From: an uncultured Algoriphagus sp.
GTDB taxonomy: Bacteria; Bacteroidota; Bacteroidia; Cytophagales; Cyclobacteriaceae
DNA length: 64,000 bases
Reading direction: 5' to 3'
Assembly (NCBI RefSeq): GCF_963974365.1
Contig: NZ_CAXBBX010000009.1
Location: forward strand, 199,274-263,273
Each line of letters opens with the position of its first letter. The first letter of the stretch is position 1. Positions 37,413 through 46,456 of the stretch are shown here, piece by piece. The notes beneath the pieces are model-generated. The model ran no database searches. It worked only from the letters and a program-made list of their open reading frames with translations, and was not told where the DNA came from. Position numbers and translations under genes: made by a program.

Positions 37413-37449
37413 GTCTCATCTATCTAGGTGATAGCCACATCAAATTGCC

Positions 37450-37457
37450 TATATTTG
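37450..37457 (+). promoter_or_regulatory. candidate -7 promoter box TATATTTG
   Basis: Exact TAnnTTTG 18 nt upstream of the nusB ATG at 37475; it lies inside the track's TTG-extended ORF. Confidence 0.35.
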
Positions 37458-37474
37458 CAACTCATTTCGAAGAC

Positions 37475-38659
37475 ATGCTAAACAGAAGAATACTACGAGT
37501 AAAGGCTTTCCAGAACCTCTATGCATACGAACAGTGCAAGGGTTCTAACCTAAATATTTCAAAAGATTTTATCCGAGCGTCATTTTTGCCAGACTTGAAT
37601 AGCATGGAAGTGCAGGATAAAACTGCATTAAGCAAAGAAGCCGAGGAAGCAATTAAGTTATTTGAACAAAACCTTACTACAAAAGACTTACTCAAATCAA
37701 GCGAAGCAAGCCGCAAAGTAAAGCAAGTGGTTTTGGAAGCATTGAAGAAGTACAATGAGGCAAACGAAAAAGATCATCAGTTTTTGCTGAAGAACATGGT
37801 CGTATCAGCGGAACGCATCCCTCAGTTATACTTATTGGCGATTGAGCTACTTCAGGCTTTTGCGAAGCATGTGGAAAAAGAAATTGAGAAGAAAAAGAAA
37901 TTCGCTGGCAATAATCCTGCTGGATTCGGGAATGAATTGAATTTCCCAAACAATAAAGTGCTTGCATCACTGCGGGAATCAGATTCGTACCGTGCAGCAA
38001 TTGCCAGAAACAACGTCAACCTCGACGATGTAGAGTTGGAAATCAGAGAATGGTTTAGGGATTACGTGAAACCATCAGAACACTATCAGGCATATCTTCA
38101 ATTGGAAGCACCAACAGTAACCGAAGATTTCGAGTTAGTGGATGATCTTTTGAAAAAAATACTTTTCAAAAATGAAGTGATGCTAAACTTCTTCTCTGAA
38201 AAAGACTTGAACTGGACTGAAGATAAATCAGTGGTAAGAAGCTTAGCTTCAAAGGTCCTGAAAAATGCGGCTAACCTAAATGAGGAAAATGAAAGCCAAA
38301 TGCCTGAGATAGCCATGAACTGGGACGAGGATAAGGAGTTTTTTCAAAATATCTTTAACTTCACCATTGAGAATGATGCCAAGAGTAAGGCACTAATTAC
38401 TCAAAAAACAAAAAACTGGGATATTGACAGACTAGCCTTTACGGATAAAGTAATTATTTCAATGGCAATCGCGGAAATGAAAAACTTTCCAAGTATTCCT
38501 GTCAAAGTAAGTATAAACGAGTATATCGACATCTCTAAAACTTACAGCACACCAAAAAGCAAGCAGTTTGTGAATGGTTTGCTAGATGTGATGGCGAAAG
38601 AGTTAACCGAAAGCGGAGAAATCCGTAAGAGCGGTAGAGGACTTCTGGACAATAAATAA
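37475..38659 (+). CDS. nusB: transcription antitermination factor NusB (long Bacteroidota form)
   Basis: Starts MLNRRILRVKAFQNLYAY; C-terminal NusB core NWDIDRLAFTDKVIISMAIAEM...INEYIDISKTYSTPKSKQFVNGLLD. Confidence 0.85.
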   Translation: MLNRRILRVKAFQNLYAYEQCKGSNLNISKDFIRASFLPDLNSMEVQDKTALSKEAEEAIKLFEQNLTTKDLLKSSEASRKVKQVVLEALKKYNEANEKDHQFLLKNMVVSAERIPQLYLLAIELLQAFAKHVEKEIEKKKKFAGNNPAGFGNELNFPNNKVLASLRESDSYRAAIARNNVNLDDVELEIREWFRDYVKPSEHYQAYLQLEAPTVTEDFELVDDLLKKILFKNEVMLNFFSEKDLNWTEDKSVVRSLASKVLKNAANLNEENESQMPEIAMNWDEDKEFFQNIFNFTIENDAKSKALITQKTKNWDIDRLAFTDKVIISMAIAEMKNFPSIPVKVSINEYIDISKTYSTPKSKQFVNGLLDVMAKELTESGEIRKSGRGLLDNK

Positions 38660-40919: not shown

Positions 40920-41517
40920 AAACATTCCGCTTTTAGTAGGTATTACAGGTGGAATAGGATCAGGGAAATCCACTGTAGCAAAGATTTTTTCAATCCTCCA
41001 GATCCCCATTTATTCTGCTGATGATCGCGCCAAATGGCTTATGAGCAATGACAGTGACCTCAAAAATCAACTCACAGAAGCATTTGGGGCAGAATCTTAT
41101 AATTCTGAAGGAGAGCTAGACAGAGCCTATTTAGCTCATACTGTATTCTCAAACCCAGAGAAAGTCAAGCTTATCAATTCTCTCGTACATCCAGCCGTAG
41201 CAAAGGATTTTAAGGAGTGGGCTTCACAGCAAAGTACAGCTTATGTAGTAAAAGAAGCAGCATTGATCTATGAAACAGGAGGTGATAAAGCACTCGATTA
41301 TGTGATCAATGTAAGCTCTCCACTGAAAGTCAGAATCTCAAGAACTCTCATGAGAGATTCCCATCGCTCCGAAGAGCAAGTGAATCAGATCGTCAATCAG
41401 CAACTTCCAGATGAGCAGAAAAATGAATTGGCTGATTTTGTGATCAAGAATACAGACAATAAAATGCTTATTCCGCAGGTTTTAAAAATCCACCAACAAC
41501 TCATTTCTAAGAATTAG
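40912..41517 (+). CDS. coaE: dephospho-CoA kinase
   Basis: P-loop GITGGIGSGKST; 201 aa; 8-nt overlap with the upstream gene. Confidence 0.9.
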   Translation: MSKNIPLLVGITGGIGSGKSTVAKIFSILQIPIYSADDRAKWLMSNDSDLKNQLTEAFGAESYNSEGELDRAYLAHTVFSNPEKVKLINSLVHPAVAKDFKEWASQQSTAYVVKEAALIYETGGDKALDYVINVSSPLKVRISRTLMRDSHRSEEQVNQIVNQQLPDEQKNELADFVIKNTDNKMLIPQVLKIHQQLISKN

Positions 41518-41534
41518 TCTTTTACTTGTAGTAA

Positions 41535-41542
41535 TAGATTTG
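41535..41542 (+). promoter_or_regulatory. candidate -7 promoter box TAGATTTG
   Basis: Exact TAnnTTTG 52 nt upstream of the ATG at 41594. Confidence 0.3.
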
Positions 41543-41593
41543 GCTTAATTCTTATTTTTCTTCTTTCACTATCAAAACACTTTTCCAAACTGT

Positions 41594-42475
41594 ATGAAAG
41601 GATACAATCCAAAAGAATGGTTTCAGGTAATATTTTTAATCCAAAAATCTGACACCTTAGTTAAGCTCGGCCCATTTCTACTCCTCATTTTTGGATACTC
41701 TCTAGGGATTGCATGGCTAGAAATGGATTACCTCAACATCGGAAAAAATAGCTGGGTGCAGAACATTCCCATCATGCACAGCTTGTTGAGCTTTGTGATA
41801 TCCATGCTGCTGGTTTTTCGGACAAATACTGCTTACGACAGGTGGTGGGAAGGTCGAAAACTTTGGGGACAACTGGTAAACAATAGCCGAAACCTGGCCC
41901 TGAAGCTCGCCGGAATGCTTGAAAATTCTGATGAGGAATCAAGAAAGTTTTTCAGACGGACCATCCCAATTTATGCCTTTGCGCTGAAAGAGCATTTACA
42001 ATCCAAGGTCACCTTGTATATGCTTGACGACAAGGAAGATGAGGAAATTAAGCCAGAAATTGATCCAGAAAAACACGTCCCGAATCAAGTGGCCAAGTTA
42101 CTTTTCGCGAAGGTAAATGACCTGTACAAAGCGAAAAAAATCACTGGAGACCAATTAATCGTACTGAATCAAGAATTAATGTCCTTCACAGATATTTGCG
42201 GAGCCTGTGAACGAATAAAGAATACACCGATTCCATATTCATACAGTTCATTTATTAAGAAATTCATCTTGGCTTACGTAGTCACTTTGCCTCTTGGCTA
42301 TGTATTTTCTCTAGGGTATTATGCAGCTCCCATCGTGACGTTTATATTTTATGTATTAGCCAGTTTGGAATTGATAGCCGAAGAAATCGAAGAGCCTTTT
42401 GGCACCGATGCCAATGACCTACCTATGGGGAAATTATCTTCAAACATCCAAAAGCATGTAGAAGAACTGATCTAA
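41594..42475 (+). CDS. bestrophin-family (UPF0187/YneE-like) ion channel
   Basis: FRTNTAYDRWWEGRKLWG signature; 4 TM helices; 293 aa. Confidence 0.85.
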   Translation: MKGYNPKEWFQVIFLIQKSDTLVKLGPFLLLIFGYSLGIAWLEMDYLNIGKNSWVQNIPIMHSLLSFVISMLLVFRTNTAYDRWWEGRKLWGQLVNNSRNLALKLAGMLENSDEESRKFFRRTIPIYAFALKEHLQSKVTLYMLDDKEDEEIKPEIDPEKHVPNQVAKLLFAKVNDLYKAKKITGDQLIVLNQELMSFTDICGACERIKNTPIPYSYSSFIKKFILAYVVTLPLGYVFSLGYYAAPIVTFIFYVLASLELIAEEIEEPFGTDANDLPMGKLSSNIQKHVEELI

Positions 42476-42486
42476 ATCAGATTCTT

Positions 42487-42494
42487 TAACTTTG
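42487..42494 (+). promoter_or_regulatory. candidate -7 promoter box TAACTTTG
   Basis: Exact TAnnTTTG 12 nt after the bestrophin stop and 30 nt upstream of the ATG at 42525. It overlaps the TTG used by the ORF track. Confidence 0.35.
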
Positions 42495-42524
42495 GACAAT
42501 CAAGGCTTGCATTATAAGTATCAA

Positions 42525-43319
42525 ATGGATCAAAAATTAAGTTTACGCCACGTAAATGTGACCAGATATATTCTCCCCCTACGAGAAGGAGGATCACTGC
42601 CTGCACTTGCGGATGCGGATGATGGGTTTAAATATGTACTCAAATTCCGAGGAGCTGGTCAGCGAGAAAAAGCACTCATCGCCGAACTACTGGGCGGGGA
42701 AATTGCCAGAGCTTTAGGTTTGAAAGTCCCTGAGTTGGTGTTTGCCAACCTTGATCCTGCTTTCGGTCGATCTGAAGGCGATGAAGAAATTCAAGACCTG
42801 CTCAAAGGTAGCCAAGGCCTTAATCTAGCCCTACATTTCTTATCTGGAGCGATCAACTACGATCCCGTGGCCATGAACACAGATCCTCTGCTAGCATCGC
42901 AAATAGTCTGGCTGGACATGTTCATCACGAATGTGGATCGAACTTTTAGAAACACAAACATGCTAATTTGGAATCGAGAGCTTTGGTTAATCGATCATGG
43001 GGCTTCTTTCTTATTTCAACATGCATGGGTGAATTGGAAGAAAAATGCGGAAAGCCCTTTTCCTATAATAAAAAATCATGTGTTGCTTCCAGCGGCTTCA
43101 GAACTAGAAACTGTAAATGCAACTTTTAAAAAGGTTTTGACCTCAGAGAAAATCAGCGCAATTGTAAATACGATTCCAGAAGAATGGCTACTAGCGGGTG
43201 GCGATTCTGAACATGCAGATGAAGTGAGAAAAGTTTACCAAGACTTTCTAAATCTTCGCCTTTCCTATTCTGATCAATTCATAAAAGAAGCTCAAGATGC
43301 AAGAACAGCACTTATATGA
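42525..43319 (+). CDS. HipA-like / PI3-4-kinase-fold protein kinase (stand-alone catalytic domain)
   Basis: Gly-rich KFRGAGQREK; catalytic-loop-like NVDRTFRNTNMLI (compare DRHxxN); metal-binding-like LIDHGASF (compare DFG); about 264 aa from the ATG. Confidence 0.55.
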   Translation: MDQKLSLRHVNVTRYILPLREGGSLPALADADDGFKYVLKFRGAGQREKALIAELLGGEIARALGLKVPELVFANLDPAFGRSEGDEEIQDLLKGSQGLNLALHFLSGAINYDPVAMNTDPLLASQIVWLDMFITNVDRTFRNTNMLIWNRELWLIDHGASFLFQHAWVNWKKNAESPFPIIKNHVLLPAASELETVNATFKKVLTSEKISAIVNTIPEEWLLAGGDSEHADEVRKVYQDFLNLRLSYSDQFIKEAQDARTALI

Positions 43320-43680
43320 ATACGCGATCATCCGTGTAGTGCCGCGGGTGGAAAGGGAGGAATTCATCAATGTTGGTGTAGTGATCTGCCATTGGAAAAG
43401 AAATTTCCTTGCCTGTAAGATACATTTGAACACTCAAAAATTATTGATGCTGGATCCTCATGCTGATGTTGAAATGATTGCACTTAATTTGGCCTCTTTT
43501 GAAAAAATATGCACTGGTTCAGAAGCAGGCGGTAATATTGCATCCATGGATTTAGCCTCTAGGTTTAGATGGCTAACTGCTGTAAGAAGCTCCATTATCC
43601 AAACTTCACGTCCACATTCTGGTACTGCCGAGGACTTGGAGAAAACTTTGGAATGCCTTTTTGAGGAAAATGTAACTTAA
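43297..43680 (+). CDS. DUF3037-like protein
   Basis: The N-terminal YEYAIIRVVPRVEREEFINVGVV matches the DUF3037 signature as I remember it. Overlaps the kinase gene by 23 nt in another frame. Confidence 0.65.
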   Translation: MQEQHLYEYAIIRVVPRVEREEFINVGVVICHWKRNFLACKIHLNTQKLLMLDPHADVEMIALNLASFEKICTGSEAGGNIASMDLASRFRWLTAVRSSIIQTSRPHSGTAEDLEKTLECLFEENVT

Positions 43681-43800
43681 GTTAGATTTTTTGCTATACA
43701 GGAATTTATTAAACCAATCTCTCATTATTCTGGCTATAAGTACCCGATTTTCCATGCTAAAACAAGTTGGGGTAAATGCTCGAAAACTAATAAAATCATT

Positions 43801-43808
43801 TATTTTTG
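43801..43808 (+). promoter_or_regulatory. candidate -7 promoter box TATTTTTG
   Basis: Exact TAnnTTTG 26 nt upstream of the ATG at 43834. Confidence 0.3.
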
Positions 43809-43833
43809 ACGCAAACTCTAACAAATACCCCAT

Positions 43834-45048
43834 ATGAAAAAAGGACTTTTTCTAATTCTATTCTTTACGATTTACTTCAAGTCATTTTCTCAAATTGTAT
43901 ATGAGGAAGGATATCTAATCAACAATTCAAATGAAAAAATTGAATGTTTGATAAAAAACAACGATTGGAAAAGAAACCCTTCCTCCTTTGAATATAAGCT
44001 AACTACTGAGGGTGCTGTACAAACTGGAGACATCCAATCTGTACAAGAATTTAAAACAATAAATTCACCCAAATTCATACGAGCCGCTGTGCAGGTAGAT
44101 GAGTCTAGCCTAAGCAATCTAGACGAAGATCCTTCTCCTAAATTTGTAGCAAAACAAATTTTTCTAAAGACAATCTTAGAAGGAAAAGCATCTCTTTACT
44201 CTTTTGAAGACAAAAGTATGAAAAGGTATTTTTATGCTATCGATGACTCTGAAATTGAGCAACTAGTCTATAAAAAATATAAAAACGGAAATGCAATCAG
44301 TGAAAACGCGCAATTCAGAAATCAATTAATCAATACCCTAGTTTGTCCATCCTTTACTTTTCAAGAGTTCCAAAACATAGGTTATACTCAAAAGGAGTTA
44401 GAATCCATTTTCATTAAATACAGTGAATGCACAAACAGCACATTCACAACCAACGAAAAATCAGAAAAGTCAAATTCCTTCCATTTGACTATCAGACCAG
44501 GAATCAGTTCCCAAAATTTAGAAATTGAAAATCCCGAAAATGCTATAGAAAAGGTTGATTTTGACAACATACTAGGTTTCAGGATTGGAATAGAGGCAGA
44601 ATTCATTTTGCCTTTCAACCAAAATAAATGGGGAATTCTAGTTGAGCCAACTTTTCAAAGCTATAATGCAGATAAATCTGCGCGAACCGGAGCTGCCACA
44701 GAGGACAACTATCTTGTCTCGGTCAAATACAAATCAATTGAGTTGCCAATAGGATTCAGATATTACATGTTTTTGAATAACAACTCCAAATTATTCTTTA
44801 ACCTTTCCTACATCACTGATTTATCATTAGCTTCTAAGATTGAATTTACGAGAACGGATGGCGCCCAAATTCCAGCATTAGAAATAAAATCAGGAGGAAA
44901 CTTTGGAATAGGCGCTGGATATCGATATAAGAATAAGTTGACAGTAGAGTTAAGACATCATAGCAATCGAGAGATCCTAGGAGGGTATCATAATTGGACT
45001 TCCAATTACCGAACTACTCATCTTATTTTAGGATATACACTTTTTTAA
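43834..45048 (+). CDS. hypothetical outer-membrane protein (N-terminal soluble domain plus C-terminal beta-barrel)
   Basis: Signal peptide MKKGLFLILFFTIYFKSFSQ; C-terminal half has alternating beta-strand patterns and ends in LILGYTLF; the gene is AT-rich. Confidence 0.5.
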   Translation: MKKGLFLILFFTIYFKSFSQIVYEEGYLINNSNEKIECLIKNNDWKRNPSSFEYKLTTEGAVQTGDIQSVQEFKTINSPKFIRAAVQVDESSLSNLDEDPSPKFVAKQIFLKTILEGKASLYSFEDKSMKRYFYAIDDSEIEQLVYKKYKNGNAISENAQFRNQLINTLVCPSFTFQEFQNIGYTQKELESIFIKYSECTNSTFTTNEKSEKSNSFHLTIRPGISSQNLEIENPENAIEKVDFDNILGFRIGIEAEFILPFNQNKWGILVEPTFQSYNADKSARTGAATEDNYLVSVKYKSIELPIGFRYYMFLNNNSKLFFNLSYITDLSLASKIEFTRTDGAQIPALEIKSGGNFGIGAGYRYKNKLTVELRHHSNREILGGYHNWTSNYRTTHLILGYTLF

Positions 45049-45077
45049 AAAACACTCGTCAAAACTATTCCTAAAAG

Positions 45078-45115
45078 AAAAGGGAACCGCTTTATCATCA
45101 GAGATTCCCTTTTTA
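45078..45115. terminator. possible bidirectional terminator (OMP gene / serS)
   Basis: Stem AAAAGGGAA/TTCCCTTTT with a long 18-nt loop, between convergent genes. Confidence 0.45.
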
Positions 45116-45151
45116 AAATCTATCTCTAGAATAGTAAATATCTCCTTATCA

Positions 45152-46423
45152 TCAAATCCTATCAAATCCTAAATAAGGCTGAAGCACCTTTGGCATCATG
45201 ATACCTTCTGGAGTTTGATTGTTTTCCAAGATGGAAGCTACTATTCTAGGCAATGCCAATGCACTACCATTCAGTGAATGAGCTAATTGAGTTTTTTTAT
45301 CATCCCCACGGAATCGCAATTTCAGGCGATTCGACTGATAGGTTTCGAAGTTAGAAACAGAACTAACTTCCAACCATCTTTCCTGTGCTGCAGAGAATAC
45401 TTCCATATCATAAGTCAGCGCAGACGTAAAGCCCATATCACCTCCACAAAGTCTCAAAACACGATAAGGCAATTCCAGCTTTTGCAAAAGTCCCTGCACA
45501 TAAGCGCTCATGCTTTCTAGTGTCTCATAGGATTTATCAGGATGGGTAATCTGCACGATCTCCACTTTGTCAAATTGGTGAAGTCTATTCAATCCTCTCA
45601 CATGAGCTCCCCAGCTTCCTGCTTCTCTACGGAAACATGGAGAATGCCCCACGTTTTTGATAGGCAGATCACTTTCAGAAAGAATCACATCGCGGTAAAT
45701 GTTGGTGATTGGAACCTCACCAGTTGGAATCAAATACAAGTTATCAGCGCCTGCATAATACATTTGCCCCTCCTTATCTGGAAGTTGACCAGTTCCATAG
45801 CCTGAGTCTTCATTTACCAAGATTGGCGGTTGGATCTCATAATAACCTTGCGCGAGTGCTTCATCCAGGAAGAAATTAATCAACGCTCGCTGCAGCCTCG
45901 CCCCTTTTCCTTTATATACTGGAAATCCAGCACCAGAAATTTTATTGCCTAGATCAAAATCGATGATATCGTATTTTTTGATCAAGTCCCAGTGAGGAAG
46001 CTTGCCTTCATACAGCGTAGGAATAGCGCCATTCTCCAAGACTACTTCATTGTCCTCAGCAGATTTCCCTGCAGGAACAGAAAAATGTGGGATATTAGGA
46101 ATGGTATAAAGTAAGGCGATTAAATCAGCTTCTGCTTTTGAGTTTTGTTCTTCAAGATCCTTCACTTGAATTTTCAGCTCAGCCGTTTTCTCTTTGATCT
46201 TGACTGCTTCTTCGGCTCTTCCCTCACGCATAAGCGTTCCGATTTCTTTTGAAATAGCATTTGATTCACTTTGAATCTGATCACGCTCCGACTGAGTGGC
46301 TTTTCTCAATTCATCAAGAGCAACTGCCTGATTTAAGACAGCCTCTGCATTTGGGAAATTTCTCTTTTGAAGTCCGGCAAGTACACCGGCAAAGTTTTCA
46401 CGAATCTGATTAACTAAAAGCAT
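45152..46423 (-). CDS. serS: serine--tRNA ligase
   Basis: 423 aa; N-terminal coiled-coil arm; class II motifs FRREAGS and GSALALPR. Confidence 0.95.
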   Translation of the reverse strand: MLLVNQIRENFAGVLAGLQKRNFPNAEAVLNQAVALDELRKATQSERDQIQSESNAISKEIGTLMREGRAEEAVKIKEKTAELKIQVKDLEEQNSKAEADLIALLYTIPNIPHFSVPAGKSAEDNEVVLENGAIPTLYEGKLPHWDLIKKYDIIDFDLGNKISGAGFPVYKGKGARLQRALINFFLDEALAQGYYEIQPPILVNEDSGYGTGQLPDKEGQMYYAGADNLYLIPTGEVPITNIYRDVILSESDLPIKNVGHSPCFRREAGSWGAHVRGLNRLHQFDKVEIVQITHPDKSYETLESMSAYVQGLLQKLELPYRVLRLCGGDMGFTSALTYDMEVFSAAQERWLEVSSVSNFETYQSNRLKLRFRGDDKKTQLAHSLNGSALALPRIVASILENNQTPEGIMMPKVLQPYLGFDRI

Positions 46424-46448
46424 TTTAACTTGGTTGAAATTGAAGCCT

Positions 46449-46456
46449 CAAAGATA
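46449..46456 (-). promoter_or_regulatory. candidate -7 promoter box TATCTTTG (minus strand)
   Basis: The reverse complement of CAAAGATA is an exact TAnnTTTG, about 25 nt upstream of the serS ATG. Confidence 0.3.

Follow-up and report, generated by a model that had tools for sequence, protein, structure and literature searches.

Two overlapping genes in the genome of an uncultured marine Algoriphagus sp. raise the question of whether a small kinase and its still smaller partner protein form a toxin and neutraliser switch, as distant homologues do, or a regulatory module of another kind. The genes lie on the forward strand of contig NZ_CAXBBX010000009.1 (assembly GCF_963974365.1), within a stretch of 64,000 nucleotides (nt) spanning positions 199,274 to 263,273, which is referred to here as the window and is numbered from its first letter. 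The first open reading frame (ORF1) encodes a protein-kinase-like enzyme, and the second (ORF2) encodes a DUF3037 protein. By its domain matches, the pair is assigned to the HipA_2 kinase/DUF3037 class, which is known as PADLOC PDC-M66, HipAD, and DS-6. By analogy with the studied members of this class, the pair would be an autonomous, co-transcribed, and translationally coupled kinase with a neutralising DUF3037 partner, that is, a HipAD-like switch, and this reading is given a probability of about 55%.

Profile searches support the class assignment. ORF1 matches the Pfam family PF20613 (HipA_2) at 66 bits against a cut-off of 27 (E = 4e-18), with residues 18-236 aligned to profile positions 7-223 of 240, and ORF2 matches PF11236 (DUF3037) at 154 bits against a cut-off of 22.6 (E = 2e-45) over positions 1-118 of 118. 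Each protein matches a single model in PADLOC-DB, namely PDC-M66A for ORF1 (E = 1e-25) and PDC-M66B for ORF2 (E = 7e-11), although ORF2 covers just positions 3-128 of the 281 in the latter profile. In PHROGs, ORF1 matches phrog_3162, and ORF2 matches positions 5-129 of 279, the N-terminal half, of phrog_5137. No NCBIfam model was found for ORF1 or ORF2, and a sequence search of the PDB with both proteins gave nothing useful. An earlier sequence-only reading of the window had called ORF1 a HipA-like kinase and ORF2 a DUF3037 protein, and both calls are confirmed by these matches, the second over the full length of the family. The same reading regarded the pair as an uncharacterised module and DUF3037 as a family without an assigned function; neither statement holds, as the pairing is already catalogued as PADLOC PDC-M66 and named HipA/HipD in GenBank PV340545, and a neutraliser role has been reported for distant homologues, including the HipD antitoxin of that record. 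The class of HipA-like kinase and DUF3037 protein is known and partly validated, and both proteins carry family names at NCBI, so the pair does not represent a new kind of system.

Experiments on the class come from two sources. DUF3037 is strongly associated with HipA-like kinases, and the PADLOC name for the pair is PDC-M66 (PMC12548924). In the Retron-Sda1 operon, the pair alone protects E. coli from phage Bas51; deletion of the kinase abolishes the defence, and deletion of DUF3037 is toxic (PMC12548924). That operon differs from the window locus in having an upstream helix-turn-helix (HTH) gene and a retron reverse transcriptase with its non-coding RNA (ncRNA), neither of which is present at the window pair. 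The DefensePredictor study validated DS-6, renamed it HipAD, and found that a catalytic mutant of the kinase loses defence (PMC13092281). Its DS-6B consists of DUF3037 and DUF1829, and AlphaFold3 predicts a DS-6A:DS-6B complex and, more weakly, DNA binding by DS-6B (PMC13092281). GenBank PV340545, from Escherichia phage PhiR5_1, records a 'HipA toxin' of 249 amino acids (aa) and a 'HipD antitoxin' of 275 aa beside cI. In BLASTP against this phage pair, the kinase shows 29% identity (E = 3e-15) and the DUF3037 protein 26% (E = 2e-10). The primary HipAD paper is reportedly that of Brenes & Laub 2025.

HipAD and the window pair have the same layout, with a HipA_2 kinase gene followed by an overlapping, co-directional DUF3037 gene and no HipB partner. 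They also belong to the same Pfam, PADLOC, and PHROG families and have the same invariant catalytic residues. In contrast, HipD is 275 aa long and carries an extra C-terminal half of ~150 aa, HipA is without the FRGAGQ loop, its catalytic loop contains a 4-residue insertion, and the two genes overlap by 4 nt rather than 23 nt. HipAD is found in E. coli prophages, as in PhiR5_1, where it lies beside cI; the window pair is located on the chromosome, in a syntenic setting, and evolves slowly. Short-form pairs from other Bacteroidota and from Streptomyces are closer to the window pair, with a kinase of ~260 aa, a partner of 126-131 aa, and the same Gly-rich loop. Their identity to the window proteins is 56-99% in Bacteroidota and 40-43% in Actinomycetota, and they are annotated merely as 'HipA family kinase' and 'DUF3037 domain-containing protein'. 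One such kinase, P0179 of Echinicola vietnamensis, has 77% identity; RB-TnSeq libraries are available for this species and for Bacteroides thetaiotaomicron.

Some of these relatives have settings of their own. On plasmid NZ_CP095012 of Streptomyces sp. 2P-4 (locus L084, 4028-5169), a HipA_2 kinase with 40% identity to ORF1 and a 131-aa DUF3037 protein, overlapping by 4 nt, lie inside a polyketide cluster, between a PPTase and a crotonyl-CoA carboxylase/reductase, with a TetR regulator and the elfamycin efflux pump facT next to them. These flanks place the Streptomyces pair within a gene cluster for an antibiotic that targets EF-Tu, which may be a coincidence; the identical arrangement is likely in S. 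globosus. In Parabacteroides distasonis, the PLSDB record 'plasmid 45' (NZ_OY725790, 278 kb) has argH, pyrE, gltA, recX, and groES around the pair and seems to be part of a chromosome and not a plasmid, and the same is likely for a Bacteroides finegoldii record. In the temperate Campylobacter phage vB_CJ12660_3PH123 (locus L083, 2962-4090), a divergent HipA_2 kinase of 262 aa directly follows a putative repressor, and is itself followed by a protein of 117 aa whose N-terminal part weakly matches DUF3037. This is a phage-borne version with a short partner, in a moron-like position like that of HipAD beside cI.

The kinase has an intact active site. The peptide motifs to which the sequence-only reading had drawn attention, KFRGAGQ, NVDRTFRNTNML, and LIDHGA, are all present in ORF1 and are invariant or nearly so over 30 homologues. 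The (near-)invariant positions are G43-A44-G45, N136, D138, R139, R142, N143, N145, and I156-D157-H158-G159-A160. When the kinases of the window, Parabacteroides, Streptomyces, the Campylobacter phage, phage PhiR5_1 (HipA), and a Pseudomonas plasmid are compared, K40, D131, N136, D138, R139, N145, and D157 are invariant in all six. The Gly-rich loop FRGAGQ is shared by ORF1 and its Parabacteroides and Streptomyces homologues but is missing from phage HipA and the Pseudomonas homologue, both of which have the 4-residue insertion in the catalytic loop. ORF1 is predicted to be a catalytically competent kinase of the Ser/Thr type.

The AlphaFold2 model of ORF1 has a predicted local distance difference test score (pLDDT) of 81 and a predicted template modelling score of 0.84. 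Its top Foldseek matches, all at probability 1.0, are CtkA, CotH, Fam20, and PI4KII, which gives it a protein-kinase-like fold. The best structural match is CtkA of Helicobacter pylori (PDB 3akk/3akl), with a template modelling (TM) score of 0.5-0.58. CtkA resembles ORF1 in being a small stand-alone protein-kinase-like enzyme, yet the two share only 12-14% identity, and CtkA is secreted, acts as a pro-inflammatory kinase, and is not accompanied by a DUF3037 protein. Several homologues of ORF1 at NCBI (P0136, P0145, P0146, P0152, P0196, and P0204) are named 'aminotransferase class I and II', a legacy misannotation that has spread across Algoriphagus, Echinicola, and Belliella; the name 'aminotransferase' is also given to a homologue from a Sulfurimonas phage.

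The partner consists of DUF3037 alone. ORF2 has 26% identity to residues 7-125 of HipD, and the alignment stops at the HipD domain boundary; ORF2 corresponds to the N-terminal domain of the HipD antitoxin. The stand-alone form is the norm among the relatives of ORF2: 1335 clusters were detected at the 50%-identity level (E <= 1e-3), and the top 150 are almost entirely proteins of ~100-160 aa. The AlphaFold2 model of ORF2 is confident (pLDDT 92). Foldseek of this model against the PDB gives no significant match, with a best E of 0.72 and weak HORMA-like matches at probability 0.06; the BFVD matches are four phage proteins (125-287 aa, uncharacterised) with TM scores of 0.53-0.66. A universally conserved Ser/Thr phospho-acceptor in DUF3037 was considered and rejected, as the RSSxxQTS patch that is invariant in Bacteroidota is not so in Parabacteroides, Streptomyces, and HipD.

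These structural results bear on a different assignment, in which the pair would be a toxin-antitoxin (TA) system of the HipBA or HipBST type and ORF2 would stand in place of the HipA N-terminal subdomain as HipS. Like HipT, ORF1 is a short kinase of the HipA superfamily and is paired with a separate small protein of ~120 aa, and in such systems growth arrest is expected from phosphorylation of an essential target. However, HipA_2 is the sole Pfam match on the 264-aa ORF1, and neither a HipA_N nor a Couple_hipA domain is found. No HTH gene lies beside the pair, whose immediate neighbours are a bestrophin gene and an outer membrane protein (OMP) beta-barrel gene; the absence of HipA N-terminal domains and of a HipB-like HTH partner had been noted in the sequence-only reading, and the Pfam and neighbour checks agree. 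HipBA and HipBST include an HTH protein, and their kinases belong to the Pfam family HipA_C and not to HipA_2. Moreover, the kinase gene comes first in the window, and the PDB sequence search was empty. No solved HipA or HipS structure is a significant match to the ORF2 model, and therefore DUF3037 is not a look-alike of HipS or the HipA N-domain, an equivalence rejected by the Foldseek search. Membership of HipBA and HipBST is rejected on the features tested (domains, neighbours, and fold), and this assignment is regarded as very improbable.

The layout of the pair is summarised in the table below.

Table. Features of the kinase/DUF3037 locus, with positions in the window (residue numbers for sites in ORF1)
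Feature	Position	Strand	Remarks
ORF1, HipA_2-family protein-kinase-like enzyme, 264 aa	42525-43319	+	ATG at 42525, stop codon at 43317-43319
ORF2, stand-alone DUF3037 protein, 127 aa	43297-43680	+	frame differs from that of ORF1
Overlap of ORF1 3' end and ORF2 5' end, 23 nt	43297-43319	+	different frames; translational-coupling layout
TAACTTTG, fits Bacteroidota -7 consensus TAnnTTTG	42487-42494	+	direct reading; 30 nt upstream of ORF1 ATG
Weak hairpin over bestrophin stop, then U-rich stretch	42458-42490	+	-9.9 kcal/mol, z = -1.98 against shuffles
Predicted sites of ORF1			putative ATP-binding K40; Gly-rich loop G43-A44-G45; catalytic loop D138-R139 with N143/N145; metal-binding D157

The arrangement of two co-directional genes, with the ATG of ORF2 (43297) located 23 nt within ORF1, is as the sequence-only reading had described it. 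An alternative in-frame start for ORF1, TTG 42492, would give a protein of 275 aa and was chosen by gene callers on matching Tara metagenome contigs. ATG 42525 appears to be the better start, because the N-termini of 30 homologues align there and the TTG extension is not conserved among them. TTG 42492 itself falls within the putative -7 box TAACTTTG.

This box begins 12 nt beyond the bestrophin stop codon (42473-42475), and the sequence-only reading had taken it as the sign that the pair forms a transcription unit with a promoter of its own. As a single occurrence, the box is not significant, given that the window has 67 copies of TANNTTTG, compared with 64.7 +/- 7.9 in shuffled sequences, and the motif is not enriched. 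The idea of a separate unit nevertheless holds up. Of 80 related loci, 28 have an exact TAnnTTTG at a distance of 17-42 nt before the kinase start, and TAnnTTTA variants occur in many others. The loci bearing it include Flavobacteriia, Dysgonomonas, and Litoribacter, all with unrelated upstream sequence. No -33 TTTG is evident by eye upstream of TAACTTTG, and a scan for sigma-70 promoters and intrinsic terminators found nothing above shuffled expectation. The hairpin sequence at 42458-42490 is kept in the closest Algoriphagus loci, and it is possible, on weak evidence, that it acts as a terminator separating the bestrophin gene from the pair. Taken together, a dedicated, putative promoter is likely for the pair. 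An Rfam scan of 41000-46000 found nothing, and therefore no retron ncRNA or other RNA partner is present there.

The two genes are strictly conserved together. A pattern-limited scan of a genome collection returned 158 relatives, and the results at the level of loci rest on the best 80 of these, which fall into 23 genus-level groups (19 named genera and 4 unplaced or mislabelled bins of metagenome-assembled genomes, MAGs). The kinases of these loci have 64-99% identity and come from Cytophagia, Flavobacteriia, and Bacteroidia. The sequence-only reading had proposed a count of how often the two families adjoin across genomes, and a DUF3037 ORF directly follows the kinase in all 78 loci with readable downstream DNA. 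In most of these 78 pairs, an ATG is so placed that the overlap is likewise 23 nt, and the kinase is intact in 80/80 loci. No third gene is conserved across the 23 genus-level groups, so that the kinase and DUF3037 are the sole co-conserved genes. The trivial explanation that the pair consists of chance ORFs or of a decaying, non-functional remnant has nothing in its favour except the small size of ORF2. It is refuted by Pfam scores far over the cut-offs, by ratios of non-synonymous (dN) to synonymous (dS) substitution rates well below 1, and by the presence of >8000 clusters at 90% identity for each of the two proteins, and its probability is negligible.

In the proposed HipAD-like switch, the pair would be transcribed from its own promoter, and translational coupling would ensure that the DUF3037 partner is made in step with the kinase. 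ORF1, as a predicted active kinase, would be bound by the DUF3037 protein and held inactive. Loss or displacement of the partner would free the kinase, which would then phosphorylate an essential cellular target and arrest growth. By analogy with the validated relatives, such an arrest would be a TA-like switch and could act as abortive infection. To this mechanism the window pair contributes its family membership, intact active site, strict co-conservation, and conserved overlap, all of which are established, while the evidence for kinase-dependent phage defence and for toxicity upon deletion of the DUF3037 gene comes only from distant relatives. In the HipAD-like reading, both the target of the kinase and the trigger that frees it are inferred. 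It is plausible that the 127-aa DUF3037 protein alone suffices to neutralise the kinase, because DUF3037 is the only part common to all partners. The window pair is probably without antitoxin-mediated autoregulation and would rely on a constitutive promoter of its own, since ORF2 has no counterpart of the C-terminal domain for which DNA binding is predicted in DS-6B, a long-form partner of the HipD type.

The sequence-only reading had already guessed at a TA or abortive-infection role. The guess matches the experiments on distant homologues (PMC12548924, PMC13092281), but the clade of the window is unlike a mobile TA or abortive-infection module. Because of its vertical inheritance, slow evolution, and housekeeping context, the defence reading is therefore not simply transferable to this clade. 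These properties would be expected of a core regulatory kinase, that is, a vertically inherited housekeeping signalling module of Bacteroidota. DUF3037 would serve the kinase as its main substrate, its activator, or an obligate regulatory subunit, and the pair would tune a normal cellular process and take part in neither phage defence nor addiction. This explanation is considered a possible but tentative one.

The following observations speak for it and weigh against the HipAD-like switch. The gene order coaE-(bestrophin)-kinase-DUF3037-serS is kept within Algoriphagus. Over 20 syntenic genomes, the median dN is 0.079 for the kinase, 0.117 for DUF3037, 0.057 for SerS, and 0.168 for CoaE; the dN of the kinase follows that of SerS (r = 0.84), and the pair thus diverges in step with SerS. 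Over these genomes, dS is saturated, dN/dS is well below 1, and purifying selection is strong. In a neighbour-joining tree of the kinases, genera are monophyletic and classes part roughly as in taxonomy, with Streptomyces as an intermediate branch and phage HipA as a very long one. The flanks are of the housekeeping kind in the window, where the neighbours are genes for an ABC transporter, Glu/Leu dehydrogenase, NusB, YajC, YbbR, CoaE, bestrophin, an OMP beta-barrel protein, SerS, and a 2-oxoglutarate oxygenase, and such flanks are found in six genera. Ten genes immediately beside the pair in five other genera have ordinary metabolic or sensor roles, and 0/10 of them match PADLOC, and the Parabacteroides and Chondrinema loci likewise have ordinary flanks. 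A profile-derived scan of IMG/VR found no relative of the clade. Every pair examined is intact with no decayed copy, as opposed to the frequent pseudogenisation of chromosomal TA systems (PMC13617665).

Differences from the validated pair point in the same direction. Identity to it is low (26-29%), the window kinase scores 66 bits against HipA_2 compared with 258 bits for phage HipA, and the canonical Gly-rich loop of the window kinase is missing from the validated toxin. HipD and the Pseudomonas plasmid homologue, at ~270 aa, combine DUF3037 with a C-terminal half of ~150 aa that ORF2 does not have. No experimental study of a short-form pair, whether of toxicity, binding, or defence, was found in the literature. 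Among the sampled loci, the window clade looks like a core gene pair and not an accessory one, and its SerS-like rates, vertical inheritance, housekeeping context, and lack of decayed copies fit a core kinase better than a typical accessory TA or defence module.

On the other side, the core kinase explanation has to account for the homology to a validated toxin and neutraliser pair, and for a gene order and tight coupling that are those of defence systems. Nor is the pair accompanied across genera by a third conserved gene, a substrate, or a pathway neighbour that would point to a housekeeping process, and the 'core' status is a putative one that is drawn from the sampled loci. HipA-family kinases target aminoacyl-tRNA synthetases. 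The adjacency of serS as a hint that SerRS is the kinase target was nevertheless rejected, as it is limited to synteny of the Algoriphagus type.

The window version is set apart within its class by its short partner, its Gly-rich loop, and its vertically inherited clade, and it lacks two features of the validated systems. One is the two-domain partner of ~270-280 aa, in which DUF3037 is joined to DUF1829 or a DNA-binding-like C-terminal domain, and the other is the accessory or mobile distribution in prophages, plasmids, retron operons, or defence islands. The combination of a HipA-like kinase and DUF3037 was validated as a TA-like defence against phages in 2025-2026, and only in long-partner forms, from mobile elements of Proteobacteria and from one retron operon. 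A more speculative view, held with little confidence, is that the short-form pair is of ancient origin and has been handed down vertically in Bacteroidota as a core module, with relatives in Actinomycetota. It would comprise a kinase and an obligate small regulatory subunit that control an essential process, and would represent the ancestral or domesticated state of the mobile HipAD systems, which carry the extra C-terminal partner domain. In that case, the evolutionary rate of a 'toxin-antitoxin' kinase module would equal that of an aminoacyl-tRNA synthetase, and the module would have been kept without decay across a phylum. If the short form still acts as toxin and neutraliser, the DUF3037 domain alone would be the neutralising unit, and structural and mechanistic studies would gain a minimal system. 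Otherwise, a defence or TA module would share its ancestry with a housekeeping kinase module, which bears on the trust placed in homology-based 'defence system' annotation, such as PADLOC PDC-M66, in Bacteroidota genomes.

Further observations concern the surroundings of the pair. Positions 42300-46450 of the window are colinear with Algoriphagus winogradskyi DSM 15360 at ~83% DNA identity. Within this region, the kinase-DUF3037-serS tract is 90-99% identical with dS of 0.10-0.25, while the flanking coaE, bestrophin, and 255-aa lipoprotein-like genes have dS > 1.5. The tract looks like the result of recent homologous recombination between Algoriphagus lineages. The ~1.48 kb between DUF3037 and serS (43675-45155) holds an ORF at 43834-45048 for the 404-aa OMP beta-barrel protein (PF13568). 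This segment is missing from A. winogradskyi, from locus L005, and from nearly all other Algoriphagus loci, and is found only in locus L009 with 62% aa identity; it is an indel within the recombination tract.

Kinases that nest within Algoriphagus or Leeuwenhoekiella also occur on three MAG contigs, whose labels are Planctomycetota, Limnohabitans, and Hyphomicrobiales; the first two of these contigs have coaE/serS synteny of the Algoriphagus type. All three are probably mis-binned Bacteroidota contigs. Elsewhere in the window, the NusB homologue at 37445-38659 is 404 aa long, with the NusB domain confined to residues 265-385 and an N-terminal part of ~260 aa without a Pfam match.

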